A stretch of DNA of 64,000 nucleotides. Origin: Candidatus Omnitrophota bacterium (lineage in GTDB: Bacteria; Omnitrophota; Gorgyraeia; Zapsychrales; JAKLDJ01). The DNA lies in NCBI GenBank assembly GCA_022703585.1, contig JAKLDJ010000001.1, forward strand, positions 182,891 through 246,890, written 5' to 3'. Position 1 is the first letter of the stretch. Each line of letters begins with the position of its first letter. Under the pieces are notes generated by a model. The model ran no database searches. It saw only the letters and a list, made by a program, of their open reading frames with translations, and was not told the DNA's origin. This document shows positions 3,701 to 36,700 of the stretch, piece by piece. The translations under genes were made by a program, and so were the position numbers.

Positions 3701-6700
3701 GCAATAAGCAAGGCATGGGCTGCTTGATATAGCGAGGTGTCCTCAAGCAAAAAGACCCAGGTTTTCCCGTCGCGGGGGATACTGGCCGCGCGGATAATCA
3801 ATTCAAAGATATCCCGGTTAAGTTCTGCGAAAGAAATCTTTCCGTCATCGAAGAAAACCGGATCATCGGTTTCCGGAGGATTATACGTAAAGCGCATATT
3901 GCCTTTTCTTAAAGCCGCCGCACATTGCGTGCTCATACCAGGCAACTGCTTGCGTTCTTTCTCGCTATCGCATTGATCAATCACGCCTCGGGCGAAGGAA
4001 TCAAAGCGTACTGCCATTTCCTGTGGAGTTAAGACCCGCAGTTTACCGCTGGAGTCTCTGACAAAAAGCGAAGCCATAGGCTCAAGAAGATACATTTGCG
4101 CTGCCCGGGAAAGATCCAGCGCCGCATCCTCGGCCTTTTCGTCCTCCAGAGGGGCAGAGAGTAACGGTGTCTCCACGTGCGCTAATTGCGGCACTTTCTC
4201 ATCCGGATTACTTAACAATCCCGGGACATAAGCCATGTCCAGGTCAGGGTGGTCTACGGACTTTCCAAAATACTTTGAGATTGAACCCGATAAACTTTCT
4301 TCAGGCGAAGTAATACTTTTAATCAGGTTTTCAAAATATTCCTTGACCCGGTCTTTTAACCAACCTCTTTCGTTCTCTTTTACTGTTTCATCATGACGGT
4401 CAGCCATGGCCTCAGCCAACGCCTGAAGGTTCCGGGTGAACTCAACATGTTCCTGGTCCAACGGATAGAGGCTGAAGTCATGGATGCCATTATTAAAATG
4501 ATGGGTTTGACTATTGAGCGGTACCCCTTCATCGCTTAAAACCCAAGCGGCGTTTTGATAAAAGACGATCAGGAAGCTTTTTTTGTGGATCTTGATTTCT
4601 CCGACCCAGGCGTCATCGTTGATTCTGAATATACTGGAATCATAAATGTCCACATAATGCGTTAAGGCCAACGGTAATTGATTTCGGCTAATAAATTGCC
4701 GGACTGCTTTTTGTTCGCGCCGGTTAAATTTCTTGCTTTCATCACTATTCGATTCATAAAAATCATTCTTGATAAGATATCCGCTCAATCGTTCAATAAC
4801 CTCTACGACAAGCCTGGCCTTTTGAACGGTAGGCATAACGTCGATACCACCCAGGAAGGTGAGGGTTTCGTAGGTGCGAGCCAAGCGTACGGCTTCAAGA
4901 TAAAACGGCCTTAAATATTGGGGAATTGATTTTAAAAGGCCAATTGCGGACGGCTTCCCTAAACGCAGCAGGGCAAAATCAATCAGGATGTGTTCGGCAA
5001 CATAAACCTGCGACGAAACGCGCTTGGGCACATCTTTGACGGCACCGTCTTCACCGAGAAGCCCGAGTTTTTCTGCGAGCGCGGAAATCCTCTTGTCCGA
5101 ACCTTTGGCAGTCTTCAATTCCCGTGCCAATACGCGCAGCTTCCGGCGGTCAATGAGCTCTCGGATTTCTTTGCGGATTTGATTTTCCGCTTTGCCTTCG
5201 AGAATGTCCTTTGTCCCGTCGGAAACCAGCCCTAAGACAGACAGGCCCGCCAACACAGCAGTGGCGGGCAGGCCCGTCAGCCCCGTTAGAAATGTTGAGG
5301 GCAATAAGAAAGTTGTTAAAGTTTCTAACGGGGCCAGGGGCAACGAGAAAAACGCGAGGCAGCCTAATGTTTCGATGCCTCGAATCATTTCATCTTGCTT
5401 TAATTTTCCGCTGATAACAATAGCAAGTTGCTCGTATACAACTGAGAAAAAAAGTTGAGAAGTTACATAGTCGGACACTCTTATGCTGCCCAACCCGCAG
5501 TTTTCAATGCGTAAGACGTGCGTGCCGCTTCTTACGAAATAGAGCTGTTCATTGTACCTGCCTCTTGAAAGGGGTTTGATAGCGGTCCATAAGTCCTCAC
5601 TAAATCCTGCAATATTCGCAGTTTCATCGTAATGGATAACGCCAACAAGCTTTCCTGCAGAGTAGTCAAAAACAAGAAGATGGCATCCCGGAGGTTTGTT
5701 AAAAGCTTCCGAAAGAGGGGGACACTTTTCCTTATCCCAGCGGATGCTGATTTTGACTGATTCGGGATCTAGTATCGTCCGATGCAGATAAAGCATGACC
5801 GGATTATTAGTCCCTTTGTAATACACTATTCCTCTGGAAAGCGCGTGCTGACGCAGCCAACCGAGAATAGCCTTGGCAATTCCTTCTATTTGAAAACAGG
5901 ATTGTATGTGCAGGTGTTCCAATAGCAATTGAAAGCCACCAAGATAAAAGACTAAACCCGACGTGCGGCTTTGGCCCGGATCATCGATTCTCAGGTTATC
6001 CAGCCATATTTCATATTCCATGCCATTCGAAAAAGGGTCGCTTGAGCGGACGATTATAATGGTATTGCCTCGATGGGGTATCAATACCTTGACAGGATTT
6101 TCATTTTCATCGCGCCATTCTTGGGTTCCGTCGAGATACGCCACCCTGCGCGTCCACTCTTTCCCTTGGGCCGTATCGTCATCCGCGCCTTCTCGCACCA
6201 TTCCCGCGATAAAGACGGCGGGCCCCGCCAGAAACAGCGGGGCGGGCAGGCCCGCCAAGGGCAAGAAGAGCGACACAAAACACCCTAAGCGCCCTTCATC
6301 CTGCGCGGTCAGTTGTTGATAGATCTCCTGCGCGCGGCGCTGCTGGTCTTCGGATAACCACGCTACAGCGAGCCCATAACTTTTTGCTTCGAGATTCGGG
6401 TCAGGCGAAACAGTATAACGGGAACTGACTTTATTTGTCTTCTCATCAAAATCAACATCGGTTTTCCATAAATCAAACCCGAGTTTTTGCGCGGCAAGCT
6501 TAAGCCCGTCGCGGATATGGGTATTAAAGATAACCGTGACGTTTTGCTGGCGCAGGTAATGCAATACCGCCAGCTGAATCGCCGCCAATTCGAAATTATC
6601 GGTGCCGTGCAGCTCATCTAAAATAAGCAGGCTATCCGGCGAGACACTATTAATCATATCCGCATACTGTTTGAGAATATTAAGAAAATAACTTTCGCCG

Positions 6701-9700
6701 GTTTCGGTCACATTGCGGCCGCCAAAAAACGCCCCGATTCCGCCGAATCTGCTCATGGTTAAATCACCCGAGACATAAAAACCATGCCGGGCAAAGACGG
6801 CATTGATAAAACTATTAAGCATCAAGACACTCTTGCCGCTGGAATTGGATCCGGTTAAGATAAAAACCGGTTTTTGGGGGTTAACCGCAAACGTCTGCGC
6901 CACACCTCCCTGCAAAAACGGCCCACGCCCCCAGAAAAATGAATGGTTCGGGAAGAAGGGCACGCTATTTTCTAATCTAAATGTTCGATACTCATCAACG
7001 AGAGTCGGCGGCTTGATAGAATTCAAAATGACAGAACGGGCAATACCGGTAAATTCATCCACCCCCCTAGCAATCATTTCAAAATCTTTCCCAAGATGCT
7101 GGCAGGCCTCGCCCCATTCAGCTTCCAATCTTTCCCGTTCTTTCTTGCTTAAACCGGCAGGATCAACGGTATATTTTTGGCGCATCTCATCCAGCGCGGA
7201 TTCCTTTTTCTTCAATAATAGTTTTGTTTTGTCAACCAGGGGCTCCTGCGGCAAGGTCTCAAGGTGCTCGATAAGCAATTTCATTTTTTCTGCAAGCGCG
7301 TTGATCTTTTTCTCATTTTCTTTAACATCATATCGCGCCCAGCGAAATTCCCGGTCGATACATTTATTGACCGACGAAAGAAGTTCGGTAATTTTTTTAA
7401 GGTACTCTGCGCCCTGGGAAACAAAAAGCGCAGTCAGGCGCAGGCGGACATCAACCGCATCCTCCTGCGCGGTATCGTCCTCTTTTTCTGTCTGCGGCGC
7501 GGTTGTATCCCTGCCGCCTAAAAGGGACCCAAGAATTTCTTCTTTATCCGTCGGTTCTTCAATATTATCTGCATCGACATCCCCGGTAAATATGCCGAGC
7601 AACCGTTCCGGGGTCTTACGGAACGCGAAATGTTCCCCAGGGTAGAGATTAGCAAAAACCACTTCAAACATTGAAAAAGCCGCGGATTTCTTATCCAGCT
7701 TCAAAGAGGATGATTTGGAATCGCCCATTTTCTTAATCGGAATCTCCTCAATATCGCCCCCCTCGATAATGCAGCGATAATACGCCCGCGCCAAAGTAAT
7801 CATCTCCTTAGGAAACCCGGCCTGGCGCATTAATTCAATCGCGTAGCTGTGTTTCGCGATGCCGGGCACCAGTCCAAAATCAGGAACAATCCGGCCCTTG
7901 TTCTCTTTAACCGTATGCATAAAGGGCTGTTGGCCGGTGCGCGCCTGTAACAACTCGTACATTTTCTTCAAGTGGCTGGTAACAATAACCGTGGCGCCGC
8001 TACGGATCAGATCTTCGATAAGGACCGTGGCAATCGCCACCAATTCGTGATAATCCGTACCCGTCGGGACTTCATCAAGGATAATCAAATCTCCGGGCCC
8101 GGCCTTTTTAATCAAGTCGGTTAATTTTTCAATCAACATCCCGAAATAACCGTATCCTTTGTGCAGCTGTTCCGGCTCGGGAAAGACCGTGTAGATATTA
8201 CGAAAGACACCGATGGCCGGCGCGTCATCGGGAACCGGCAGGCCAACCTGGGTATAAAGCGCGGCACGGCCAAGGCCGCGGGCAGTCGTGGTTTTTCCAC
8301 CCATGTTGGGGCCGCTCAATAAAAGCGCATTATGCCCGCCGCCTAAAGAAATCTCGACGGGGTGAATGCCTTTTAAATCATCCTGTTGTTCTCTTTCGCG
8401 TTTCCGTCGCGTCTTCGCATCAAAGGCCTCAAGGAATCCATCGAAGATGTCACGGTCCGGTTTTGGCTGGAAGGCACGGGCAATGAGAACCGGGTTGCGG
8501 TAACGTGCCAATTGTATAGTGCCGGTAGGCTGCATGATATCGGCAAAACGGTAATTATTCTGAACGGCAAAAAGGGCAACACGCGCGTAATAATCAATTT
8601 CTGCCAAATAATTCTGCATCATCCCTGCCGGGAATTGGCGCAGGAACGAATGCTTGTCGCCGCTATTTTTCGCGCGCCGCCTTGAGGCGTAGGCCTCGTC
8701 TCGTTCCCGGCGTTGACGCCCCGCAGCTTGCCGAACAAAAGAGTCCAGACGTCTTAGGCCGCCTAAGAAGCCATCTGCATCATCATCGTCTTCTACATCC
8801 AAATCGTCATCGTCTGAAGAATCTGAAATTTCTTCCTCATCTTCATCCGGCTCGCTGTCTTTTTTGGCGGCTTTTTGTTGACGCTTCTCAAACAAACCCG
8901 GATTTTGAGGATACGGGTCCCCTTCTATGTGAGATTCGATGTTAATCACCCATAAATCGGATAATTTCTCCACCAGCGAAGAAAATTCTTTTATAACATC
9001 ATCAAAGAGCCCCTGCTCTTGAAGCTGTTGCTGTATTTCCTCCTCCATACTCGGCTTATCATTGTCCGAGTCATCGTCTTCATACAGCGCGCTATAAAGG
9101 TTACGCCCCTTATCGCGCCGATGAGAAGCATTCTTTTCCCGGTGCTTTTTAAGAATTTCCGGAGCGACAAAAACATTCGCATCGACGCGCCAATCTCCCA
9201 CAGCATTTAAGAATTTCCTTCGTTCCAAAAATGGCTTTAGCTCCGGCCGGCGTAACGTGACCTGAATCTTTTCTTTCCATCGTGCCATAACCGGAGAATC
9301 ACTCTCGGGCAATGCCTGTTCGACAGCCTCCAGGCACAAAATAACTCGTCCCAGCGCAATCAAAGCAGGCGCCACGTCGGGATAAGCCTCATCGAATTCC
9401 AGGGGTCCGTCGTTCCATTGCCCCTTGGATTCACGGTCCAAAATACTACTCCTCTCTTTCTTTTTGGGCACAAAGAACGGATAATGGTAGCGTCGTAACG
9501 TGCGCAGCTCTGAAAGAAAGTCTTCTTTTTCTTTATGATAGCGCGCGATTAGTTTTGTAAGCTGTTCTAGCGGATTGTCTTCGCTTGTTCCCTGAGCGGC
9601 AATCTCCATCAGGCTTTCGATGGCACGCCGGGCTATTAGAATATCCTTGTGCTGCCTCCAGGGGCGCAAGAGCCTTTGTTGCAAAATCCTTTGCACGTCT

Positions 9701-12700
9701 TCCGTCGCGTTGGCAAAAAACGGAATAACGTTTTCCAAAAGCCATTCTCCCTCGCTCTTAATTTCTAAATTTACCAAGTCATGCCCTTCAAGTTTCATCT
9801 TTCCGGGCCAAAAATCAGGGTCACCGTAGACGGGAATCCTAAATCTATTTGGTTCTTGGGCATCGTTTCCTGCGTCCTTCACCATCCCCATCACCGGCAG
9901 AAACATTAAGAACGGCCCGGCCCCGACGAGGCCTAAAAGATTAAAGAGGGCCGAGGCGGACAGGAACGCGAGCGGCGATAGGAACATAAGGGCCCGAAGC
10001 GTTTCAACTTCTTTCCAGTCATCGTCCTCCTTCGCCTCATCCCTCACCTCCTCCCAAGCCTCCCCCCGGCCTGGAAGAATGCTGCCTCTATAGTCAACAT
10101 CTTTTGCCGTCGGAAAGATTCTTTCAGGTTGGGCAGCGCCTGACCAACAAGAATCAAAAGGGTTGAAAAGCGACCACCATGTTATAGGCAGCTCTTGGCC
10201 TTTACTGAAACGCTTCCAGTCATCTGCCACAACAATAAAGATTAAAGGAGTTTTATCGGATTGCACTGAATCCGGTTGAAAGCCTATCCAGTCGCCTATC
10301 ATCATGCCAAACCAAGGCTCCCACCAAAGGTGTTTGACGTTGTTTCGCCGCTTGAGAACCTCCAGATCTTGGGGCGTGATCTTATCCATCGGTGTCGGAA
10401 CGATAGGAATTGCTGGCATATTTTGGGCGGCATTCGGATCTCCAGGGTTAGGGCGCATAACCATCTGCCTGTCCTTTGATGCCATCAGAATGACCGTGCC
10501 CTCGGGAATAATCAGTTCATCCAGCCATGGCGGAACAATAACACGGCCCTTACCGAAGTTACATACGGCCAATAAGAGCCTCCCGGGATCAAAGGGCCTG
10601 TAATATTCTTCCAAAAATTCTCCGACAGGCCGCCCGTTTTTCTTAAGACAAAGCATGCTATCCTGGGAAGCATAACCGTGCAGTTCCAGAATATTTATAT
10701 CTTGAAAAACATGATATTGGCCGCGAGTCGCGCTGACCAGGTAAACCATGCCTTTCGAGTAATGTTCCAGTTTCGGATAATAGAAAGACGGAGCATCATC
10801 GGGGACAATGCCAAGCACCCTGAGCGTTTCTGCAAGCTCCGTGTACATTCTAAAGACAGCGCCAAGGTCATTCTTGACTTCGGAGTAAATATACTGAAGA
10901 TAATCCGGCTTATAAATACTGGTAGAATCTGATGCGTCTGCTTCGGCGGTTTGAGGTATCGTGCCAGGTCCGGATATGACCGACAGCAAGACCAGCGCCA
11001 AAATCAAAACAGGACGTCTCGCCCGAGAGATGTGCCGCGTTTCGCCGACGGCGCGTGAAGAAAGAGGATTATTGTCCGTCCGGATCATCCCCAAAATGGG
11101 CCCGGCCCCGACGAGGCCTAAAAGATTAAAGAGGGCCGAGGCAGGCAGAAGCCCCGGAATAAAGCAGGCCAAACCTTTAGGCTCTCCGGTATCAGCAGCC
11201 GTCAAATCACGCTCCCACCACCATCGGCCGCGTTCAAAAACAAAGCGATATCCGGCATCTCTATATAAATCATCAAGCCGTGCAATACTTGTCGCCGGTA
11301 GATAAAGGGTCGTCGCTGAAAAAAGGCTGCTGCCCGCCGGCGCCAAAATTCGCCCCAGCTTTTGCTTTCGCGCATAAGCACGTACGGCCTGTTCAAGAAT
11401 ACGCTCAACCGAACCAAGTTTTTCGCGAACCAACCGCGGCGTACGGCGACAATTGATATAAAGCCTGGCCTGCAGAGTATTGATTTTTAGCCCGGCCTTC
11501 TTGCCTTCAATCTCAAAATCGACAAAGCCTAAAGGAAGTGAGTCTTTAAGCAAGGTTTCACGATATTCCCTGGGGACATCGCTGCCATTAACCCTAAGCT
11601 GTTCGTTAACAATAGGCCTTAACAGCGCCAGCATTTCTTCGTCGTGCAATAATACATTAAGCCTCTTTCCCGGCATTCCCATGCCCAGGCTCAAACTCAA
11701 TGCGCCTTCGTTTGACAAGGTATCCGGCCTAAAACCGGGAAGCGCCACACGCTCATTAATCTTTGCCCGAGATAAATCGAAGATTTGATAGTTGACCGGC
11801 TGTTTCGAAGGAAGGATAGCGAGCGCTCGCTCAAGAATCTTTATCCCTTGAGCTTGCGGGCTTCCGCTTAGATCTGCGCGCCTGATTGTGTCTGCGATAC
11901 AATTAATGTCTGTCGCCCGATTAAATCGACGGCCGTCAAAGCAAGCATATCCGGATTGAAGTGTCTTGGTTGTATAATGACGTAACCCCGCTAAATTTAT
12001 ATTTTTAGAATGATTTTTTCCGGTCACGGCACAATAAACAGTCCACAAAAACGCGATATTACTGCGGCTGGGCACCCTGAGGCTGTTTTTCCTGGCGTAT
12101 ATAAAATAATTTAATAATAGCCCGATGAAATGATTAGGGAATTCATCCAGGATTACACCAAATCCTTGAGCCCCTTCAAAATAATAGAATTCATTTTCGT
12201 AGTGCAAGTGCAATAAATCGGCAATATTAATTAACGGCAAACCTGCCCTTTGCGCGCGCTTGATAAACGGCCAACGCTTCGGGTTAACCAGATGCCGGCC
12301 CATTAAGGACAGCGCCTTTTGCCAGTCCGCGTCAAAATTGTCCCGGATAAACGCGGCCACCTTGTCCGGGTCATCCGTATCCGGCGGCAGCGCATTTTTT
12401 ATCGCCTCAAGCGCACTATCTTCGGTTCTCGGCGCTATACCGGCCATCAACACGGGTAGGAATATCAAGCCGGGAATAAAACAACCTAACCCTTGCGGCT
12501 TTTGGTAATCAGCGGCGGTAATAGTAGCACCCGGAGATCTCTTACGTGCAATCCATGCGACTTCGGTCATCATCCGGCTATACCCGGCCAAGGTCGGGGA
12601 GGGAATAAAACCATACCGGTGTGCCAACGACTGGTCGCGCGCAATCACATGCTTGTGTTCCTCGCTCAAATAGCCGCCCGCGATCAGCGCAACAATTTCA

Positions 12701-15700
12701 TCTCCCGTTACCCTTTCAATGCCGCGAATCAAAGCAATGCTGTTCGAATTATCGACGGTATACCCTACCCAGCGGCCAATGTTGGAAACAAGGACTGCCT
12801 TTTTATGCAATTTCGGCAGCCGCTCAAAAAGAGGCCGAAGATGTTCGGCATCTTTGAGATCACCCCGGATAAGATGGTACTGCCGGCTCGGCCGGTAACC
12901 GTTCAATAAAAGATGTTGTTGTGCCGCGGCTAAGGCTTCGTCGTCTTTTTCTATCAGAACAACCGATGACGCCCCCAATTTCAGCGCCACCAATGACAGC
13001 ATGCCGTCCCCGGCGCCGCAATCATAAATGCGCCTGCCGTCCATGGCGACATTCATCGCGGCTGCCATCGAGGCCATGGTGAAATACATCAGAGCCTTAC
13101 TGTCGACAATCGTATCGTGCAGATTTTTCAGGATAATAACATTGCGGTTAAGGGCTGTCCGCAGGCGGAGACTCAATTCCCCGTAGGCCTCGCTATCAAG
13201 GATAAATAAATGCCCGGCACGGATAAAACAGGAACCGAAATAGTCCGGCCGAAGAATTGGGCAAACAGGTGTGGGCATCCACGCCTCATGTACCTGCGGC
13301 TTTCCGGAAATCCTCTCCCAGCGTTCATTGGCGTATATTTTCTTGCCGTAGACAAGGCCTGATTCTTCCTCGAGCTCCCGGAATCTTTGACCCGACGGCT
13401 CAAGGCGTAATTCTTTAACGATGCGGCGGCTCAGGCGCCGGCACAATTCTTCATCAATTCCGACGGCAGGTGCCGAGAGAGGATTATTGTCCGTGCGGAC
13501 CATCCCCACCAGCGGCAGGAAAGGCAATCCCGGGAGCGTCAGAGGCAGCATAAAACAGCCGAGAGTTTCACGCGTTATTTGCGAAACGTCCTCGAATCCG
13601 TTGGTTGGGCTCTCTAAGGATGTCGCGTATTTTGGAACTACCTCTCGTCGCAAAGATTTTTCTCTGCTCTCTATTCCACGACGAACTGTTGACATCGTCT
13701 TTTCTAAATCTTGGAGGTTTAATTCGCGGCTTTTTCTTATTTCAGAAAGCCTCCTTAAAGCTTCCCCAATAGAATCTTCCAGATAAGACACCGACTCTCC
13801 CCAGGTGGAGAATGGTTTAGAAAGTCCTTTCATTAGAGTCCTAAATATATAATCTTCATTTGCCCTGGCACCCTGAATAACTCGAGACAATATATAAGCC
13901 AGATCCTGGGGATCAATTCTTATTGTTTCCCTGGACCCACCTCTTAAAAATGAAGAATGTGGATGAGAAATGGCTAAAGCTACTTTCAGCCACCAAGGAT
14001 ATCTTTCCCAGTGATAGCTGATCTCCCAAGATTTTTCTGCCTTGGAATATAGGATCTCCTCTTCTTTTTCTGGGGCGATGATTTCCCGAATAAAGTCGGG
14101 TAATCGATCCCAGATATCATCATCCATAAGAGATTGTTTAGTTGGTTTTTTGCCTGGCGTCGCGAGTTTTCTGGAAACTTTTTCAAATGTCTTATGCTCT
14201 TTCAAAGTAATAAGTGTCCCTGGTTTTTTCTTTTGGCCTAACAAGATAAGATCGTTTTTTTCATCTAACATCAGCCCAAGGATATGTTGTATCTGATCAT
14301 AATCATAACCTGCCTGAATCATCAAATTGACGGCAGAGTTCAAAGAGTATGTTCCCCACTGGGGACCCTTTTTTCTTTTTCGAGTTTTCTCTCTTTTCAA
14401 AGGTTTACGCCCCAGTGAACCTAATTTGGCATCTGTGAATTGAGACTTGGATGGTTTTCTTTTCCTTTCATATCCCCCATTGATGGTTTTTATGCCTGGG
14501 GCTGTCTTTCTTTTGTGACGGCTGAGATGATTTTGGCTGGCCTGGCGCGATTGAGGAACTCTCAAGGTATCCAATCGCTTGTCGAGCTCAAGCTTCCTGA
14601 AACGTCTCTGTTTTTCAGCGTATCGAGTACGATAGTCTTCCCAATCTTCAGGACTCACCATCCCCACCATAAAGACAGCGGGTAGGCCCAAGAACGGTAG
14701 GCCCGCCAGCCCCGCTAGAAATGTTGAGGGCAATAAGAAAGTTGTTAAAATTTCTAACAGGGGCAGGGGCAGAATAAAACAGCTGAGCGATTGAGAGGAC
14801 GGATGAAAATCAATAAGCAGAGACCCGAATCTATTCACTTCAAAACTTATTCCGCCAACGCCCTCGGGGACGAGGAATCTCCTGATTAAATCTGCATTAA
14901 AATCTGTTGTTTCCAGAGACGACATGGTTTCATTAATCATCCTACGGTTGTTTACGGCTTCGATATTGCCCAGCCTGGAAGATGTGCGAGCCATCAGGTT
15001 GCAAAAATTGATATTTCGAAATCCGGGAACTCTGAATATTCTGGATATCATCATGGATAAATACAGCAATTTGATTTGCGCCTCCGGGGCCAGTTCCGAA
15101 AGTGCTGTCTCTGGGTACCAGAAGCTGAAACCATTTCTTTCTCTTAACAGAAAGTCATAAAACAGGTCTCGTCCCGCCGGGTCACCGGCAAATACTTTCT
15201 CGACAGCAGGTAACATCCCTTCTTCTTTATCCGGATTGAGCCTGTTGAGCCTTTCTATGGCCAAATTCTGGCGTCCATGAGCAGCCCGGAGACGTTTGTC
15301 AAATATCCCCTCCAGAACAACCTCTACCGCCACGACACCTGTCACGGCCTTGCTGAGGAGAAGCGCTTCTTGAACCACCTCCGCCATCTCCAAGTATATT
15401 TGCTTGAAATAATCAAACAGCTCCTGGGTAAATAAACCTTCAGAAACTGTCGCCGTATCAATCACATTGATAAGAAAATAGAGTTTTAGAATATTGACAT
15501 TCTTCTTCCCGAGCGCGAACGCCATCACCGGGATTAAAACCTCTCTGGTGACCTCCCCCCGCTTCAACTGCCCGATCCAGCCATGTTCCCGGACCATGAC
15601 TAAAGCGACCTCACACTCTTGTTTGGCATAGCCGATTTTTGTAAATGTCTTTTCTCTTCTTAAAATCTCTGCCCCAGACTTCGGGTGGTTGGTAAAATCC

Positions 15701-27700: not shown

Positions 27701-30700
27701 TCTGCGTCAGAAATTCTCCGCAAAATCGCAAAATAAACGGCATTATGCAGACCATGCAGAATAAACGGCACAACAAAAACCCCTGTCTTCCAGTAGGCAT
27801 AGCCCCAGAGAATCCCCATCCCGATCCTGAAGATGCTGAACCGGTTATCGCTGTGAATCAAGGCAAACGCCACGCTGCTAACCAAAAGAGCGATGGATGT
27901 CGATACAGGCATACCCGCGACGATTGAGATCAGACCGCAATAATTCAAAAGCGCCTGGAGACCCATAAATAAGCCGGCCCGGAATATTAATTCTTCGACC
28001 AGCGGTATCTCAATCGCGATGGTGGTATAGGTTTTTAAAGGTTCCCCATAAATAATAGGGTGCCGGCTATCACGTCTTGAGGAATCTTTTAAATACCGCT
28101 TGGCAGACAGAACAAAGAAGAAGAATACCGGAGCACACAACAGGGCAACCATTTTAAGAGTGTAGAGCAGCGCCGGGATTATTTCCCGCCGGTCATGATA
28201 GGTCAACGCCAGGGCGATCGCCGCCGGGATAATATTGGCGACCAAAATTCCTGCCCAGCGCCAAAGCTTGTCGTCTTTCTCCTTTTGCCCATTAGTCTCT
28301 TCCTGCACCATCCCCACCAGCCCCGTTAGAAATGTTGAGGGCAATAAGAAAGTTGTTAAAATTTCTAACGGGGCCAGCGGCACAAACAAAAGCGGCCACA
28401 GAGCGAAGGGCGTAAGACAGCCGAGATTACCTTCTCGTGGCGACGCGTCGTCGCGGTATTTCACCTTTTCGATAACGATCATCATATTGCTGTCGGGAAG
28501 TGCGACCTCGCGTCCTTCTGAATCAAGGAGCCTGGCTTTGCCTTTTAAGTTGTCAATATACCCTTGCTGCAAATACGATTCTTCGTCTTTAGCTAACGGC
28601 AGAGATCTAACCACCATGCCTTCTTCTTGGGCAATCGCGGTGATCAAATCAATGTAACCCTGACGGGTCAAAACACCGTATTGCTCGCGCACTTCATAGG
28701 GTAAGCTGCTTGGGTCAAATTCGGGACGATAGGCCCAAGTCAATGTAAAGAGAAACTCCATCGCGTCTTTCCGTAACATGCGAATACGCCATATCTCCTG
28801 AGCGGTATCTTCAGAAACTATTTCATAGGCATCCGATAAATTCCGGCCTTGGAAATTATTCACAAAGAAATCAAAGACTTCCTTATTTTGCCTGCCTGTC
28901 AACTCAAGGATTTGCATTGCCTCGCCATCAGGCGGAATGGCGCCGTCGCGGATAAGAAGCCTGCCGCCAACGCCTAAAACCTGCAAGGCTGCCCTAAAAA
29001 GATCTCTGATCGATTCGATATTAAAACGCCGGCCGTCTTTTTCGGTATAGCTGTAGACTTCATGCAAGAGCGCGCAAAGAACAACCGTGTGGGCCATTGT
29101 TTCTCCGGCAGAGGCTAAGGCCGCTTTTAAATCGTTGGCGTTGGCTTTGATAACTCTCGCGGAGAGATTCTTTGCTTTTATTTTATGATCAAGTGCCTGC
29201 ACAGCCTCCTCGGAAACTTCAACGGCCAAGATCCTCTCAATGCCGTTGACCTGCTTAAATATTTCGGCGATCTCAAGCGTTGTGCCTTCACCGGGCCCGA
29301 TATCCACCCAGACGGGCCCACGGCCGTGCCTAAGAAGTCTGGCCTTGTCGCTTCGGGCAGCGGCCATTCCTTTTAAATAAAGCGCCTCATTGCTGACGCG
29401 GTCAAAGTTATCTTTACGGATGCCGTAGGCATCAAGAAGCATCTTAAGAACCTCGTGGAAGCGCAATGAATTGCTCACCTCATAGATATGAAGAAGTTCC
29501 AGCAAGTGGTTTGCTTCTTCGCTAAACCTGAAATCAAACGATATCGACTCCACGCCGGGGATGCCCAGATCGGCCGTTCCCAAAACAGGCTTTTCGCCGT
29601 CATGATGATCCGTCTTGTCAAATACTGAGACCGTCTCAGAATTAACGATCAGTTCTTCAAGGTCAACCCTGTCAAGCAATGCCTCCAGAATGCGAACCTT
29701 ATACGGGTCAAACTGATGCCGACCGCAAGAAAGCTGGCGCATAAGATCAAAGAAGCTGATATGAAACGGCCTTGTCATATCAATACCTTTTCTTTGGGCA
29801 AAGGCAAACGCCAAGGCAAGCACTTTAATTTGAGGCTCTGCCCTTAAATCGAATGTCGCACTTTCAACGTACCAGCCCTGGAAGTGCCTTAAGTCTTCGA
29901 TGAGAATCCGAATCGCCTCCGACGAAAGATTGTCAATCACGCGCTCTAATTCTTCTTTCGGCTCGCCTAACTCTCTTCTTTCCTGACGGAAGCGTCCCAG
30001 CCGGTCTTTTAGATACGCCCGCCGGGATTCTTCGGTTGCAAAGTTATCCCAACGCGCACGATAAACATCATCCCAGGAAACAGGGAATGTTTCGCCTTCG
30101 GGCGTAATAACACGGCAGAAATTATTAAAGAATCCGCGCATCTCCTCATTAAGCCGCGAGGTAAATAATCCTTCGCGAATACTCGATACATCCAAAACAT
30201 TTAACAGGTAAACAATATCGCCGACTCTTCGTGCAGCCAAGAGGGCATCATCCTGAGCGCCAACAGCCTCGGCAAGCTCTCCAAAATGCTCACGGATCCA
30301 ACCCGTGAAGTCTTCAAAAACATCGTAGGAGACTTCCCCTCTGACCCACTGCCCGGCAAAACCTCGGGTTTCGATAACGCGATAGAAGAATTCATTTAAT
30401 ACCATTCGGTGCGGATACGCCCTTAAAAGTTCAATATTCTCAAAAAGGCCTCTGTGCCAGCTTAAGGATGCCATATTACGCAAAATGAGCGCCGCTGCCT
30501 TATTAGGCAGACGAAAATCAATGCCCTCAATCTGCGCCCACTCTCGAAGCAACTCCGGCAGCGCACTTTTAGCCACATCATGATAGAGAAAAGCAATGCG
30601 TATGTAGGAAAGGATATCAAGTTTCTCGAGGGTGGCCACCACGTCCGCAAGATACTCAAATTCTCTGTTGGAGATACCCGGCTCGTCCTGAAAGAGTTTT

Positions 30701-33700
30701 AGATCTCCTCTTTCCAACCCCAGCAGTTTTCGAGCAAAGCCCCGTTCAAGGATATGCTTAACTAGAGATCTATTTCTTCGCGGCTGAACCGGCACCGGCG
30801 TGGCATCAAAGTTCATCGAGCCGGGCGCCTGGAACAAATATCCGTGAATCTCCGGAAAAAGCCGTTGTATCTCATTTTCTGCGGCAGTCTCGCGCGCACC
30901 CAAAAGTGGTTGGAATTCATTTACTAATGCTTGTGTATCGGTATAAATCCTTTGTTCGATGCGGTCTTTGTGGACAACAACAGCGGTCTTGATCGCCCCG
31001 GGTTTGGGACGGATCCGGTAGACTTGAAGGGTATGCCAATACGGCTCTTCGTCGACCCGTGCGTCAGCCTTGAACCTTAAGCCGCCTTCTTGAATCAACC
31101 AGTCTTTCCATTCCTGCGTAACCGACCCTATTTTTAGCGGCACCTCGAACGGCTCGCCTAATTTCTCGACGATAAGCCGGTCCCCGAATTCTTCAAGATA
31201 CCTTTCGAAATCTTTCTTCCCCAAACTGCTAACGTTCATAACAATACAGGCATCCGGATTATGCGGATTAAGATGGTCGACGCCGATTTCCAGTACCTCG
31301 CGGATAAAACCTGTTCCCCGATAAGGGTCTTTTTCATCCGTTTTCATGAAAGGCGGCAAGCTAATATAAGGCGGATTGATGATCATAATATCATACGCTA
31401 TATCAAGGCCCCGTATCCCTTTGCCCCAATAGGAATGAAGCTTAATAGAATTCCTGGGGCCCCGGTATGCCTTAACCGCCAGCACGGACGCTCTTAGGGC
31501 ATAAATACTGATATCGCTAAATCCGACGTGTTTGACGCCCGGGAATCTTGACAATATCGTCGCAGTAACCTTTCCGCCGCCGACTCCTCCTTCAAAGATG
31601 GATTTAATACTCGCCTTGTGCAGAATACCGGCTTCATCCATGCGCTTGATCAACAAAACCGTATCAATATTGGTCGTCCACACATCCCTGTCGATGCTCA
31701 AATCCCAGGAAACAATGACTCCCCGATAATGGGTATAGCGTCTGTTTTGTTTTAATAAGGCATTGAGCGCTTCTCTTGTTTCACCGGCAAGATGATGGTC
31801 AATAAATCTTTGCGGAGTAATAAGCCGGCAGTTGGGGATAGTGGCGACGGGCTTGTCTTCTAAAACCACGGCCTCATAATCGACGCTGCCGTCCTCTCTA
31901 AATACCTTTGAATCATCCAGAACACGGTAATAACTTATATCAAAATCACCTCTCTCATTATCCTGAATATCGATAAACAAAGATAACGGGTTGGTGCGAT
32001 CGGCAGGCAAAACAATCGATAGTTCCTGCGTCGGCCCTTCGGCAACAGCAACTTTCTTATTTTCATTCTGAACAACATTCGGGACAGTCAATAACTCGAT
32101 TACTTTAGAAAAATCGTTCCAGCCGCGCAAAAGATAATCGGCTCCGTTTTGGATCAATACGCTGCGGTTATACTCAAATTCTTTGCCTTCGCCTTGCGGC
32201 AGGCCAAAGGCAATACCGCCTAATTCATTAACAACGCTTAGCCCCCCAATCCAGTCATTGAAATAAACAAAGGTATGGTACGGGAATTGTATCTTGAGCT
32301 CCCGATAAACCTTTTCGCGCGAGATAGACGTATCAAGATTTTCCTCGGCATCTTTTTTGCCGACAACATGATTAACGGAGATATATTTGGTAAACCCGCG
32401 CCGGCGCAGTTGTTTGACGGCAAGCGCCGTCGGACTGCCGGTTATAACGACCATGGGAATATTGCGTTCGAAAAGCTCTTTAACAAATTCTAAGGCACCA
32501 GGCATGGCCTCGGGGACATTCTGGCGCAGCATATTGCGCTGATGCTCAAGCTCCCAGACGACTTCCTTTTCCGGCCTGCCGCAAATCTCGGCGATACGCC
32601 GGATGATCTCTTTTTCGTCGACATGGACCGCGTTGGCCTCAACCCAGGCAAGGCCGTCAGAATTACCGGTCAAACTATTGTAGGTGTAGGCATATTCGTG
32701 TTTCCATGTCGGCATAAAAAGCGTGCCGTGCATGTCAAGAACAGCCATAACAGGCCTATCCTGCGGAATGATTTTTTGTTTATCGGGATGGATGATTTCT
32801 ATATCCGTCCCGGGGATAAATCGCCTTACAGACAAGTCTTCTCTTTTGTCCACGCCATCGTTGTTGACGGCTCCTGCCAGCGACATAAACATCAAGGGTC
32901 CCAGGGCGAAAGGCAACACGAGACAGCCAATCGCTACAGCATCATCCTTAACTAAAACTCCTTTAAAGCCGTTGGAGAAATAGCGCACCTTTTGTTTACT
33001 GACCTTAAATACAAATGTCTCGACCGTGCCGTCTTTTTTCCGAGCCTGGATAGAGTGTTCTTGCCATTCCAACGAAGGAACGCTGCCTTCCATAATTCCG
33101 GGGATAGAGGCAACCGTCACACCCTCTTCTCTTAACTGGATACGAAGATGGGAAATCCTGGTAACTCTCCAGGAATCGATACGGACAGGCACCGCATTGC
33201 TAAAGTCGCTCGGGCAACGGGTGGCGATCAAGGCATCGTCAAAGGTTAATCCGACATGTTCCAAGATTTTGTGAATATACAAGTCGGTTTCGTCCAGAGA
33301 TCTGGCATTGATCTCTCCGATGATGTACCCGGCAAAACCGCCCCCGGCGGTTTTGCCGAGCGACACCGGCACCTTCACGATAATATCTTCCGGGGCGAAC
33401 TCGGGAAGCCTTTCGATATCGGGCGCATTTTCACCCGTAATAGGCCTTGCCTGGACGATAAAAAGGTCTTCGCCCTTAAAGGCAAACTCCACATCCACCG
33501 GAAATCCTAATGCATCCTCTAATCCCATGACAACATCCCGGAGCCTCTTGATTTCTCCCTGAGTCAAAGGAGAATCTTTCATTCGGCCGTCACGAGTTTC
33601 TACGGACGCTTTCCGGGAATGCCATAAGTCCTTAACAAAGCTTTCCATATCAGCGCGTTCCTGGCCGGAAGAAAGGCTAAGCTGTATCCCGTCCCATACG

Positions 33701-36700
33701 GCACCTTTAGGCTCGCCGGAGAATCCGTAATAAACCTCCAGGATATCACCGGTTGTGGCGTCAAGATCGATGATGGTGCTATAGTTACCGGCGACGGCCA
33801 TCATGCCTTCTCCGATCACGGTTTCGATGGTGGTGTATCCGGCCAGATGTGAAAAGGCAACTCCTGATTTTTCCGCGAAGATGTAATCCTGCAGGAAGGG
33901 ATGACGGTTACGCCTTGCTTCCATCTGAGCAACTCGACTCCCGAGTTTTGGTTCCGGACCAAATTCATGATCCATAGCCAAATCGGCCAAATCCTTGAAG
34001 CGATCCGTGAGCGAACTTACGAACCTGCCGGCATAACTTTTCTCAAAACTGTCTTCGCCAGGCTCAGAAGAACGCCATATGCGGCTTTGGGAAAGCCCGG
34101 ATACTTTCTTGAGCCAGCGGCCCTTTTCTTGCGCCGACAGCATCCTTAAAAATAAGAATTGGTCTATCAGCCAATCAAAATGATATCTGGAATCATGCCA
34201 CATGCGTTCATACAGCGACGGGGATATGTTGCCATTATATTTTAATAACCGAGTGATAAAAGGCGCGTTTCTTAAATCCAGGAATAACTCAGTCCACTCG
34301 TCTTCGGGGGCGTATTCAATAAACGGTTTAAACACGCTTTCAAAGAGCTGTCGAATCCTCTGCCTAAAATCATTTTCATCGGAGGCGTTTAAGTAAAGCT
34401 GCCTTAAGTAAAAAGAGCGACTGAATTTTCGGCTCTCTTCATCCGCCGGCAGAGCGGCTGCATCGCCTTGCGTATAAAGCCTCACCTCAATCGAGCCCCC
34501 TTCAGATGCCACGCGGATATACGGGCCCGGAATCTTGAAGATAGCTTCTTCAATCTTAACCTTGGCATATATGACACCGCTATGCGCATAGCGGTAGGCC
34601 AGGTCTTTAAGGTATTCGTTTTCAAAAATAACATAGGGAGGAATTTTAAAGCCCAGTTGCCGTGCCAGGCCCAGCTCATCCAAAATTATCAGCCAGGCCG
34701 CCTTGCCGCCATGCACCGGCATCAATTCCTGGAATCTTTCCCGAGACGATTTGCGATTGCTCTGGAGGACCCCCAACAGCGGCAGGATGAAGAAAAACAT
34801 ATCCGGAATAATAAAGGCGTGAAGTTTTGTCGCCGTCAACTCAAAGCAATCCACCATCCCTTCCCGAAGAATGCTGTTTTGAAGCAGCCACTTTAGAGCC
34901 TCAACACCGGTCAGCCGCCATGTGCGCGGATCCTGGAAAGAAATCCGGAACTGCCCGAAGCCGGCCTGGCCCCGTAAATACCCCATCAATGTCCCGGCAA
35001 TAACCTCTTCAAGGGATACTTCACCGGTTCCGCTGACCTTTTCAACAACACGATAATGATCGCTGCGCCGGTGCACGTTTCCGTCGATATCGCTCACGTA
35101 ATAATCCTGATATAATGTTTTCCTCGTTTTCAGATTGGCAATCTGCCTGAACGACTTAAGTGTGATACCGACAGGCAACACGTCTTTTAAAATCCTGTAG
35201 AACTGAAGACCCAGCCTTTGGCCGGAGAGATGAATCACGACATTCGGGCTAAAGGAAACATAATCCAGATTAATAACGATCGATAATACGTCCCCTGTGC
35301 CGTCTTTCCCGGGGGACTTGATCAGTTTCACAATCGGCTTGGCGGATACCAAATGGTCGCTTTCTCTTTCCAGGAACACTTCAACGGCATCCGGCTTATA
35401 ATCCGGTATGTGTGCCCTCAAGCTGTAGCATGAATGATCTTTCGCCGTCATTTCTTTTCCGCTCAGCGCGCGCGCGATATCGGAGAGCACAATCATGGGG
35501 AGGCTATGAGAGCAATCGCCCTGCCGCAGTCCGGCGGGGTCAGGGGCCAATGCGCCCTCATTGATTCCTTCGGGGCGCATTGGCCCCACAGCGTTTTCCT
35601 CAAAAAGCGGATTTAAAACGACAAAAAGCGTCGTGGTTACCGTTTCGCCTTCCCTTAAATACTCAAGATGCACTTGGGTTTTTTCCATCAGTCGACCCAA
35701 GCCCTGCATGCCACAGCCTTTATTACGATAATCACTTCCCCACCTTCTCCGGCCGCCTGTATCTGCCAGGTAAACAAGGCCCTGCCTAAGGCCTCGTTGG
35801 TTTTTCTGGAGCATGCCCCAGCATTCTTTGCTGGCCAATCCATTTTGTCGGAGTATAACCTGTAAAATATATTCCATCGCCCCGCTTTCCGTTGTTCTTA
35901 AATAAATCCCCATCGCGCGATATCCAATAACACCACCCCGGCTGTGATATCCGGCATTATCTTCCAGCCCTGAAATCGCATACACCAGAGGACTCTTATT
36001 CACGGTTCTTCCGATTTCGCCCTCAAGAATTTGAATAATATCGTAATCCCGATAAATACCGTTGATGGCCAGTTCTTTCGGCCCAAAAACTCTTTCTCCT
36101 GACCCGCGCGCCTCTATTCCGCCTTCCATATTGGTAAAAACAATTCGTTCGCTGTCATCAAAAACCATGCCGGCAATCGCCGCCAGGGGAGCCAACGTTA
36201 AGAAAACAAGGCAGGAAACATCTTCACCGTCATTTGAATCGCGCTTCAGGGACGTATCCAAAAGATCAACATGAGCAGCCGGCTCACCGATAGCTTTGGT
36301 CGCCCGTTCAATCTCCTTAAGGCAAACGCCTTGGAATAAGGTTACACAATCGGCAACAAATTCCTGCACGGCCGTCTTCCACCGGTCAAGCTCGCCTTGC
36401 CCAAGACGCGCAGCCTCCAGCAGGGAGAAAAGCTCTCTTTCGACAGCATAAGCTTCTTGAGCCTGCCCTGTTGCTCTTAAAGCAGTCATCATCCTTGATG
36501 CTATGAAAATGCTATCGCAAAGATTTCTTTTGCGTGCCTTGACGTTAATCTCTTTTTGGGAAACATACCCTATTTCCCTATGCGCCGACTGTGCCGCCTC
36601 TCGGATTTGTTCAACAGTAAAGAAGCTCATGTCCGCAACAAAACACTTAAATTCTTCTTTATCCGTCGTAAGCTGCCAAGCTACGGCATCGGCAATAACT

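Follow-up and report, generated by a model that had tools for sequence, protein, structure and literature searches.

The 64,000-nucleotide (nt) stretch of a Candidatus Omnitrophota genome analysed here (contig JAKLDJ010000001.1), referred to below as the window, lies in its entirety inside a single protein-coding gene. This gene is read from the minus strand, is open at both window ends and comprises at least 21,333 codons, in which a succession of enzymatic and regulatory modules is punctuated by short hydrophobic linkers. The linkers are located exactly at the boundaries of modules that are equivalent to whole genes. The explanation retained for this arrangement, held to be a little likelier right than wrong, is that the window represents a slice of a giant multi-enzyme gene of the Omnitrophota type, with autonomous modules joined by conserved hydrophobic linkers. 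An earlier examination of the letters alone (the sequence-only reading) had described many enzyme cores strung in one polypeptide, together with SecA-like and sigma-like modules, and had recognised no pathway in the combination. This description holds: all these elements are carried by one polypeptide and no single pathway accounts for them.

An uninterrupted frame, coding throughout

A direct count of stop codons in the minus-strand frame covering window positions 1-63999 found none in 21,333 codons, against 588-1439 stops in each of the other five frames of the same window. At the base composition of the window, the probability of a random stop-free frame of this length is about 1e-478. In the numbering used throughout, amino acid (aa) i of the open reading frame (ORF) corresponds to window position 63999-3(i-1), counting down on the minus strand. 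The segment 6300-34250 considered by the sequence-only reading corresponds to aa 9917-19234 and is an arbitrary slice of a far larger gene. The translation has the composition of ordinary globular proteins, with an entropy of about 4.1 bits over its full length; the G+C content at the three codon positions (GC1/2/3) is 57/40/53%, and both GC content and GC skew are uniform over the window. Pfam domains cover just 17.5% of the ORF. A codon model trained on the Pfam-annotated domains only was applied to the remainder, and the ORF frame was the top-scoring one in 102 of 102 un-annotated windows of 150 codons. The ORF is real and coding throughout.

An artefact, in which unrelated genes would have been concatenated by mis-assembly or pseudogenisation and would not be translated as one frame, could be suspected from the limited Pfam coverage and from the 100% identity of positions 1-300 with positions 10363-10662, which could signal a repeat-induced mis-assembly at the left end. 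This explanation is considered extremely improbable in view of the vanishing chance of a stop-free random frame, the uniform composition and skew, the conservation of catalytic residues described below, and the independent recovery of similar architectures by long-read assemblies in the literature. The sequence-only reading had regarded low coding potential between domains as the mark of a pseudogenised fusion; the ORF frame being the best in every un-annotated window, the gene is not of that kind.

The weakest coding potential of the ORF is found in two windows at positions 13600-15000 (aa ~16350-16800); their scores are -0.007 and -0.153 bits per codon, the mean being 0.21. Even there, no other frame outscores that of the ORF; the region is charged, has no assigned function and adjoins a linker bearing the palindromic element presented below. 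At the other end of the window, the first hydrophobic segment (aa 73-103; region 63691-63999) is the sole one with a strongly basic upstream flank (KRQAGANSKVNRR, net charge +5) and resembles an N-terminal signal anchor. An in-frame ATG is present at codon 14 (positions 63958-63960), and the frame stays open to the window edge. The window possibly includes the N-terminus, in which case the gene would begin close to its right end or at that end itself.

Conserved hydrophobic linkers

The linkers were mapped by a hydrophobicity scan, which detected 36 hydrophobic runs in the 21,333 aa. One linker family accounts for 28 of them. The linkers represent 3.7% of the residues, and the modules that they delimit are roughly 300-2,500 residues long. 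Their positions, all on the minus strand, are as follows:

63691-63783, 63559-63687, 60922-60981, 59737-59796, 58237-58317, 52039-52149, 44566-44631, 43678-43746, 42145-42198, 39463-39507, 37723-37788, 36160-36219 and 34756-34800, minus: thirteen family linkers upstream of the 6300-34250 slice
32860..32940, minus: Cys-type linker, aa 10354-10380; no other linker separates the PPDK_N from the HAD/methyltransferase module
28309..28431, minus: long Cys-type linker, aa 11857-11897, holding copy 4 of the palindromic element
27091..27144, minus: Cys-type linker, aa 12286-12303
24808..24870, minus: hydrophobic linker of the 'SPLE' type without Cys, aa 13044-13064
20629..20766, minus: long linker, aa 14412-14457, holding copy 3 of the palindromic element
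19273..19350, minus: Cys-type linker, aa 14884-14909, N-boundary of the NagB-PIG-L module, aligning with RSELR in homologues
17215..17271, minus: Cys-type linker, aa 15577-15595, C-boundary of the NagB-PIG-L module, aligning with RSE[LI]R in homologues
14650..14790, minus: long Cys-type linker, aa 16404-16450, holding copy 2 of the palindromic element
13498..13566, minus: Cys-type linker, aa 16812-16834
12430..12498, minus: Cys-type linker, aa 17168-17190
11083..11175, minus: Cys-type linker, aa 17609-17639, inside which a recent duplication starts
9880..9993, minus: long hydrophobic linker, aa 18003-18040, preceding the MutS module
6196..6288, minus: Cys-type linker, aa 19238-19268, following the MutS module
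5221..5370, minus: long Cys-type linker, aa 19544-19593, holding copy 1 of the palindromic element

The linkers are 15-50 residues long and contain 23% Leu, 12% Gly, 10% Phe and 8% Pro. Both of their edges are conserved. The N-terminal edge follows the consensus [E/D]-x-L-[G/S/A]-C-[F/L]-aliphatic-[L/F/P]-P, in which the Cys is present in 18 of the 28 linkers, where 1.7 would be expected, and missing from the other 10. The C-terminal edge reads G-M-[V/I] and is immediately followed by a charged residue in 27 cases out of 28. The tetrapeptide LGCF occurs seven times against 0.04 expected and is the top over-represented 4-mer outside one repeated DNA element, and the residues at +1 and +2 after the linker Cys are aliphatic, as in CaaX motifs. 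Both flanks of the linkers are net acidic, with no basic cluster and no positive-inside signal; on the C-terminal side, the mean net charge is -1.4 and Asp/Glu make up 32% of the first six residues.

Four other readings of these segments were discarded. Internal translation starts at the linker-edge Met can be set aside, since a Shine-Dalgarno-like motif at -16 to -5 was found for none of 18 such codons, against 37 of 406 other in-frame ATGs. No general RNA structure is associated with the linkers: the mean z is -0.12 in the 24 palindrome-free ones and -0.15 in controls (p = 0.43). A lipobox reading of L-x-G-C is contradicted by the position of the Cys, which precedes the hydrophobic stretch instead of following it, and a signal-peptidase-I site at G-M-V by the residue at position -1, which is Val, Ile or Met.

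The correspondence between linkers and gene boundaries can be observed directly for the module that combines a NagB-like domain and a PIG-L deacetylase. This module extends over 667 aa between two linkers and is 39-46% identical to modules found in five other multi-module proteins (P0001-P0005). In the alignment, the two linkers of the window fall exactly at the pentapeptide RSE[LIVM]R of three homologous proteins, and at a hydrophobic segment in a fourth. A metagenome scan performed with the module alignment also retrieved the NagB-PIG-L unit as a free-standing gene, with a median length of 641 aa, in 24 of 25 loci of other genomes. Because the boundaries match the motifs of the homologues, because the NagB-PIG-L unit is elsewhere a gene, and because the sigma module listed below covers the whole of SigA, the linkers mark real evolutionary units: they sit exactly at the boundaries of gene-equivalent modules.

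Module content and catalytic residues

Domains were called by Pfam scans of the whole translation, also with relaxed thresholds, and by sequence searches against the PDB. About 20 distinct Pfam families are tiled along the chain, none of them dominant. The assignments are listed from the N-terminal side:

56161..58146, minus: SecA-like motor #1 (DEAD, PPXD and second P-loop domain; no scaffold/wing); Pfam SecA_DEAD 2.6e-56, P-loop_SecA 7e-33, SecA_PP_bind 2e-12; motor motifs intact
52591..55536, minus: 17 tandem helix-turn-helix (HTH) units of ~58 aa; self-BLAST 47-60% identity, DNA repeat families D1-D3, phmmer 17 copies, Pfam HTH_3 3.7e-22
46942..49020, minus: SecA-like motor #2; Pfam; 43% identical to motor #1
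37921..38772, minus: complete primary-type sigma-70 (regions 1.2-4.2) between two linkers; Pfam Sigma70_r2/r3/r4; PDB SigA 7l7b 3e-41, chain residues 117-385 of 390
33424..33888, minus: partial PPDK_N, the C-terminal part of a phosphoenolpyruvate (PEP)-utilising ATP-grasp domain; Pfam 1.1e-10, profile positions 173-314 of 328; PDB PEP synthase only 0.006
32350..32742, minus: weak HAD-type hydrolase with motif I DMHGT read directly; Pfam Hydrolase 4e-05, below gathering score
30544..30618, minus: HD-like 'LYHDVAK' motif only (aa 11140), found by regular expression; HD domain unsupported
29029..29355, minus: S-adenosylmethionine (SAM) methyltransferase with motif I VDIGPGEG; Pfam Methyltransf_25/23 ~2e-4, below gathering score
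27730..28257, minus: CPBP / Rce1-like intramembrane glutamic protease with flanking transmembrane (TM) helices; Pfam Rce1-like 2.3e-12; three catalytic motifs present
25624..25974, minus: GHKL (HATPase_c) ATPase; Pfam 1e-11; PDB PhoR alignment
21367..22773, minus: M20 amidohydrolase of the N-carbamoyl-amino-acid hydrolase type; Pfam M20 1e-14, M28 9e-08; PDB 3n5f (N-carbamoyl-L-amino-acid hydrolase) 1e-48
18382..19206, minus: NagB-like domain (glucosamine-6-P deaminase fold); Pfam 1.4e-10; PDB 2bkv 1e-27
17632..18108, minus: PIG-L/LmbE-type de-N-acetylase, in one module with the NagB-like domain; Pfam 1.7e-16; motifs
16006..17166, minus: adenosine-deaminase-like (ADA-like) amidohydrolase; Pfam A_deaminase 8e-36; PDB 6n91 alignment
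12865..13071, minus: PrmA-type SAM methyltransferase with motif I YDCGAGDG; Pfam PrmA 1e-06
7780..8322, minus: MutS domain V ATPase #1 (GPNMGGKT, ILDE), closest to MutS2; Pfam MutS_V 1.9e-44; PDB MutS2 9kce 1e-22
6280..6864, minus: MutS domain V ATPase #2 (GSNSSGKS, LLILDE); second Pfam stretch, self-BLAST to #1, motifs

Eight cores had been named by the sequence-only reading between positions 6300 and 34250, and Pfam or PDB searches reproduced seven of them: the MutS-type ATPase, with two MutS_V domains; the SAM methyltransferase, of PrmA type at 12865-13071 and with another one at 29029-29355; the adenosine-deaminase-like and M20 carbamoylase-type amidohydrolases, the latter with 3n5f as its best PDB match; the GHKL ATPase; the CPBP protease; and the PEP-utilising ATP-grasp domain, present as a partial domain. 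The eighth, an HD phosphohydrolase, was not reproduced. The candidate segment contains only LYHDVAK without an upstream His; Pfam returned no HD match at E<=1 over aa 10381-11856 and none (PF01966) at E<=10 on the isolated segment, the PDB none either at E<=10, and its single-sequence AlphaFold model has a predicted local distance difference test score (pLDDT) of 40, too low for a fold comparison. HAD-type matches are found nearby, at 32350-32742. The same slice also contains cores that had been overlooked, namely the NagB-like domain, the PIG-L deacetylase and the weak HAD. The two SecA-like modules and the sigma-like module were confirmed as well, at positions outside this slice. That the cores are unrelated to one another is true in general, except that NagB-like and PIG-L domains also occur fused to each other, as a widespread protein with two domains that belongs to amino-sugar metabolism.

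Both SecA-like motors contain PF07517, PF01043 and PF21090 and lack PF07516, the scaffold/wing domain. They are 32-38% identical to canonical SecA proteins, which all carry PF07516 in addition. As for the tandem MutS copies, PF00488 alone was detected by Pfam, and the mismatch-binding, connector, core and clamp domains of MutS1 or the Smr domain of MutS2 were not found; these copies are MutS-type ATPase modules and not repair MutS.

The possibility had been raised that each core is a diverged, inactive copy. The signature residues are mostly intact. Both SecA-like motors retain GEGKT, VDE[AV]DS, GMSGT, TVATN[VI]AGRGTDI and RRID...RQG.PGS, and Walker A and B motifs are present in both MutS domains. 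The metal-binding and catalytic motifs of the M20 module are all retained in the alignment with 3n5f, as are the catalytic Asp, His and Glu positions of the NagB-like domain, while the PIG-L domain displays PHPDD and HGAH (HxxH). In the CPBP module, the motifs EExxxR, FxxxH and HxxxN/D are read as EELIFR (aa 12002), FALIH (12045) and HGLHN (12082), and motif I is present in both methyltransferases. The exceptions are partial. The ADA-like module keeps HxH, HAGE, GHG and the zinc-ligand Asp, and the second Asp of 'TDDP' is replaced by Ala (TDAP); the GHKL module has its N-box and G1 box, a degenerate G2 box (SGSTLTL) and no HisKA partner; and motif I of the HAD reads DMHGT. Judging from these residues, the modules would be mostly catalytically competent and not a set of dead copies. 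The label of domain-capturing super-protein proposed by the sequence-only reading is a fair description, with the reservations that it corresponds to giant multi-enzyme ORFs already published and that the units are better called gene-sized modules.

The HTH array, located directly downstream of SecA-like motor #1, has the consensus LLAQAGPEKLRGLNI.QAAK.IGV...L..Y..KHPD...RYGI and constitutes an unusually long run of domains of the DNA-binding type. Two pairs of diverged paralogous modules were moreover observed in regions without Pfam annotation: positions 60937-62544 with 40549-42120 (aa 486-1021 with 7294-7817), and 58381-59844 with 42247-43785 (aa 1386-1873 with 6739-7251). The members of these pairs are 24-36% identical and their order is kept, which points to an ancient duplication of a segment spanning two or more neighbouring modules. 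AlphaFold applied to one module without domain annotation gave a pLDDT of 36.

Relatives and their boundary motifs

The gene has few relatives. No exact match to a 50-mer was found in GTDB representative genomes, no close relative of the N-terminal 450 aa in JGI metagenomes, and no homologue of the three-module stretch aa 16404-17604 among 5.8 billion proteins. The CPBP module gave only 35 weak matches among 1.84 billion representatives, and the SecA alignment and the palindromic element retrieved nothing in viral contigs. A protein search with the SecA module brought up canonical SecA in overwhelming numbers and no giant relative. The co-occurrence of linker type and protease was examined in four relatives:

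L002:2198-20728 (+), contig CAYSSX010000005.1 of a metagenome-assembled genome: the L002 ORF, complete, 6,177 aa, with APH, HTH_8, SecA-like, two GNAT and methyltransferase domains; ten RSELR pentapeptides, all invariant, where 0.02 would be expected
P0135, a remote relative assigned to Candidatus Omnitrophota in the NCBI annotation: 2,740 aa with a CPBP module; seven sites with SASPLE-type motifs
P0157: 5,942 aa; [SA]GFG[VA]A at eight sites
P0134, the fragment nearest to the segment that follows the CPBP core: 293 aa; window-style hydrophobic linker with Gly at the Cys position

The RSELR pentapeptide also bounds modules in P0001, P0003 and P0004, and these proteins and the L002 ORF have two features in common: a signal anchor at the N-terminus, and 'IQDAH', a domain without assigned function that is a candidate processing protease. 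Like the window gene, these RSELR-punctuated proteins consist of modules the size of genes, among them a SecA-like motor, HTH_8, methyltransferases and NagB-PIG-L, with a recurrent short motif placed exactly at the module boundaries. They differ from it in that the boundary is a soluble pentapeptide instead of a hydrophobic Cys-linker, in their N-terminal signal anchor and in their far smaller size (2,200-6,200 aa), and, in contrast to the window, the L002 ORF yielded no CPBP domain. No published description of RSELR-punctuated multi-module proteins was found in the literature searched.

Linkers as duplication junctions and hosts of a palindromic element

Positions 1-846 of the window (minus strand) are a near-identical duplicate of positions 10363-11175, that is, of a linker and the module that follows it, with a period of 10,362 nt and a copy cut by the window end. 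The DNA is 100% identical over 300 nt (1-300 versus 10363-10662) and the protein 92-99% identical by self-BLAST. Residues 17609-17879 recur at 21052-21333, which represents about 270 near-identical codons; the similarity begins inside the linker and none is found upstream. This copy reflects either the recent duplication of a module or an assembly problem linked to the repeat at the left edge. In addition, the sequence 'GM[VI]RTDNNPLS', made of the linker edge and the first residues after it, is common to three junctions with different neighbours (repeat families D8 and D9). From these repeats, the linkers appear to act as module-duplication junctions.

The four longest linkers contain an in-frame palindromic element of 60-70 nt (repeat family D5):

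5263-5351, minus: copy 1
14692-14780, minus: copy 2
20653-20741, minus: copy 3
28303-28391, minus: copy 4

A core of 33 nt is identical in all four copies, without synonymous differences, while the flanks have diverged; no match of this kind was obtained in 100 shuffles. The inverted arms of 13-17 nt (CCCCGTTAGAAAT / ATTTCTAACGGGG) enclose an AT-rich loop of 27 nt, and the element encodes ...APLEILTTFLLPSTFLTGL... The z of its RNA fold ranges from -1.1 to -4.0 in the sense orientation and reaches -4.3 and -5.3 in antisense, and two substitutions in the arms yield G-U wobbles. When the element is removed, a linker of normal length is left. An exact flanking direct repeat, 'CTGG', is found in one copy only, and no Rfam match was obtained at gathering thresholds. 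As the other 24 linkers show no excess of RNA structure, the palindrome is taken as an inserted element and not as a general property of linkers. Candidate identities for it are a mobile palindromic repeat of small size and a functional hairpin.

A comparable situation is that of Rickettsia, where palindromic elements, reportedly described by Ogata et al. in 2000, are small repeats inserting in frame into protein-coding genes. The likeness lies in a short, hairpin-forming element with several near-identical copies inside an ORF whose frame is not broken, each copy adding a peptide segment at a tolerant site. The element of the window differs in being shorter (~60-70 nt) and in having its four copies in one gene, in linkers only.

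Other perfect inverted repeats of 12-15 nt, unrelated to this element, are present in the ORF at 35543-35587, 33330-33358, 63627-63714 and 1388-1470; they exceed a back-of-the-envelope chance estimate of ~0.1 for arms of at least 13 nt.

A tethered or a processed chain

In the explanation favoured here, about 30 autonomous modules, each a whole gene elsewhere, would be assembled in one translation unit as an 'operon in one ORF'. The ATPases, SAM enzymes, sigma factor, HTH arrays and phospho-sugar enzyme suggest that the modules would act on the cytoplasmic side. The linkers would pin the chain to the inner face of the membrane as kinked monotopic or hairpin anchors, without threading through it, and the SecA-like motors, which have kept the PPXD and lack the scaffold/wing, may act on the signal-sequence-like linkers of the chain to which they belong. 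Modules would be gained, lost and copied via recombination in the linkers. The parity of the linkers is informative with regard to topology: three of them separate Sigma70 from PPDK_N, and one separates PPDK_N from the SAM-methyltransferase module. If linkers were single membrane passes, Sigma70 and PPDK_N, and likewise PPDK_N and the SAM methyltransferase, would lie on opposite sides of the membrane. It is because of this parity, of a module content that needs the cytoplasm and of the lack of a positive-inside signature that a chain lying along the cytoplasmic face is preferred.

Several points weigh against this proposal. The topology is predicted from a hydrophobicity scan and the parity argument; the published view places most domains of giant proteins outside the cell (West-Roberts et al. 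2023, 10.1101/2023.11.21.568195); and the window lacks domains by which the so-called Archaeovorins are characterised, namely glycosyl-transferase, glycoside-hydrolase and NUDIX domains. A membrane-tethered sigma factor and tethered MutS2-type ATPases are awkward for an uncut chain, and the conservation of the linker edges exceeds the needs of a simple anchor.

Subsequent cutting of the chain at its linkers is a serious minority possibility. As a processed polyprotein, entertained here tentatively, the chain would be cut at or near each linker to free some 30 proteins, among them the sigma factor, the MutS2-like ATPase and enzymes. The cutter would be the in-cis CPBP/Rce1-like protease, acting at an internal CaaX-like site L-G-C|F-a-a, with other proteases acting in relatives at RSELR, SASPLE and SGFG[VA]A. 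The boundary motifs are indeed short, highly conserved and lineage-specific, like the cleavage sites of viral polyproteins: the counts of RSELR in the L002 ORF (10 versus 0.02 expected) and of LGCF in the window (7 versus 0.04) are far above expectation, SASPLE recurs in P0135 and [SA]GFG[VA]A in P0157, and the motifs of different proteins occupy equivalent module boundaries. A CPBP module with its three catalytic motifs is encoded in cis, there is a precedent for CPBP proteases cleaving sorting signals made of a Cys signature, a TM helix and a charged tail, and the aliphatic residues following the Cys are CaaX-like. The linkers are also rich in the helix-breaking residues Gly and Pro, the sigma and MutS2-like modules would work more naturally when free, and processing is likewise raised by West-Roberts et al. 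2023. However, the Cys is missing from 10 of the 28 linkers and is replaced by Gly in P0134, the closest relative fragment, whereas P0135 pairs its CPBP module with SASPLE and not with Cys-type punctuation. The CPBP module scores below all myxosortase cut-offs, none of nine linker peptides matches a CTERM model, the tail that follows the linker is acidic instead of Arg-rich, and the conservation of the motifs could partly stem from recombination or gene conversion among linkers. The wider proposal that giant ORFs of this kind are polyproteins with lineage-specific processing signals, of which the Cys box cut by an in-cis CPBP protease would be the version present here, with linkers doubling as recombination junctions, is held to be rather unlikely.

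Less probable again, and improbable in absolute terms, is a multi-pass and largely extracellular surface protein serving in prey attachment and wall digestion, with alternate modules outside, as in the 'Archaeovorin' model. This is the published interpretation of related genes; the NagB-like, PIG-L and M20/M28 folds could act on wall fragments and the SecA-like motors could export the chain. Pfam detected no adhesin, dockerin, glycoside-hydrolase or lytic-transglycosylase domain in the window, however, and the content is mostly cytoplasm-dependent, with four types of ATPases, SAM methyltransferases, a sigma-70, 17 HTH units and a phospho-sugar enzyme. Single-linker parity would split PPDK_N from the SAM methyltransferase, and Sigma70 from PPDK_N, across the membrane, the linkers have no positive-inside bias, and West-Roberts et al. 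2023 themselves call some of the predicted localisations highly unlikely.

The G-C-F found in the linker consensus is the Hedgehog autoprocessing tripeptide, and MutS-type and GHKL ATPases as well as ADA-fold deaminases also occur in defence systems (PADLOC gave weak CARF-ADA and RdrB matches), but another megaprotein class (nonribosomal peptide or polyketide synthase, repeat adhesin or RTX toxin, intein/Hedgehog-type self-splicing protein, anti-phage defence fusion) can practically be dismissed, since Pfam found no condensation, adenylation, ketosynthase, acyl carrier protein or Hint/intein domain and no adhesin repeat in the ORF at E<=0.01, since the hydrophobic stretch of 15-50 residues behind the Cys falls short of what a Hint fold requires (~130 aa), and since the PADLOC matches concern a generic ADA-fold, are weaker than Pfam A_deaminase and come with no defence-system signature.

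Comparison with known systems

The arrangement of the linkers recalls the CTERM sorting signals processed by CPBP-type myxosortases: the CTERM signature has an invariant Cys directly abutting a TM segment, and 18 of the 28 linkers have a Cys at the edge of their hydrophobic segment; in both, a charged cluster follows and a CPBP-family protease is encoded alongside. In the window, this protease has intact motifs and belongs to the same polypeptide as the signals. The linkers differ from CTERM signals by being internal and repeated about 28 times instead of C-terminal, by an acidic instead of Arg-rich tail and by the absence of the Cys in 10 of 28 cases. Nine linker peptides compared with the NCBIfam CTERM models gave no match at E<=10. 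The CPBP module, which scores 47.5 bits against the Pfam family PF02517 (cut-off 22.4), reaches 34.7 bits with MrtJ (cut-off 75), 17.7 with Mrt_core (100) and 39.9 with MroQ (270).

The gene itself corresponds to a class of giant genes already documented. Giant ORFs have been reported in most Omnitrophota classes (Seymour et al. 2023, PMC10066038). Such genes were described with numerous TM regions, methyltransferases, peptidases and PPDK, and with a divergent SecA DEAD and PPXD lacking the scaffold/wing, their cleavage points being stated as unknown (West-Roberts et al. 2023, bioRxiv 10.1101/2023.11.21.568195). A 2026 preprint (10.64898/2026.06.07.730766) catalogued 916 proteins of this type, reported proteins of up to 147,155 residues with TM segments representing ~2% of residues, and distinguished 'Class 1 multi-enzyme' giants in which HATPase_c, methyltransferase and HAD domains are frequent. 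Its public catalogue comprises 5,761 Omnitrophota proteins of at least 10 kaa. The window shares with the Omnitrophota giants an ORF of more than 60 kb, regularly spaced hydrophobic segments, SecA DEAD and PPXD without scaffold/wing, and a tiling of heterogeneous enzymes (methyltransferases, HATPase_c, HAD, peptidases, PPDK) that are poorly conserved and have few relatives. Unlike the Archaeovorins, it contains no glycosyl-transferase, glycoside-hydrolase, NUDIX or dockerin domain and a single weak HEAT match (HEAT_2, E 8e-4). Further differences are an entire sigma-70, two MutS2-type ATPases in tandem, the array of 17 HTH units, and the ADA-like, M20 and CPBP modules. MutS and sigma are unmentioned in the main texts of both giant-gene preprints, and deaminases in the 2023 text. 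Nor was anything found in the main texts of these two preprints on punctuation at residue level by a conserved Cys, on boundary motifs being equivalent in different lineages, on duplications with junctions in linkers or on a palindromic element inserted in frame. The window gene thus matches the giant multi-enzyme class already described, and the linker details and the palindrome appear new relative to those main texts.

In some bacteria with very small genomes, giant genes account for a considerable part of the genome; the proteins concerned have 20,000 to 150,000 residues. Were it merely another member of the known class, the value of the present gene would be that of a well-dissected example. 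If the polyprotein explanation were true, one translation unit would give rise to a free sigma factor, to MutS2-like ATPases and to about 30 enzymes. The module content argues that at least some giant proteins face the cytoplasm as arrays of regulatory and metabolic units and are not prey-digesting surface coats. The window gene offers a concrete punctuation, with module boundaries at residue level, conserved edges and a candidate protease in cis.

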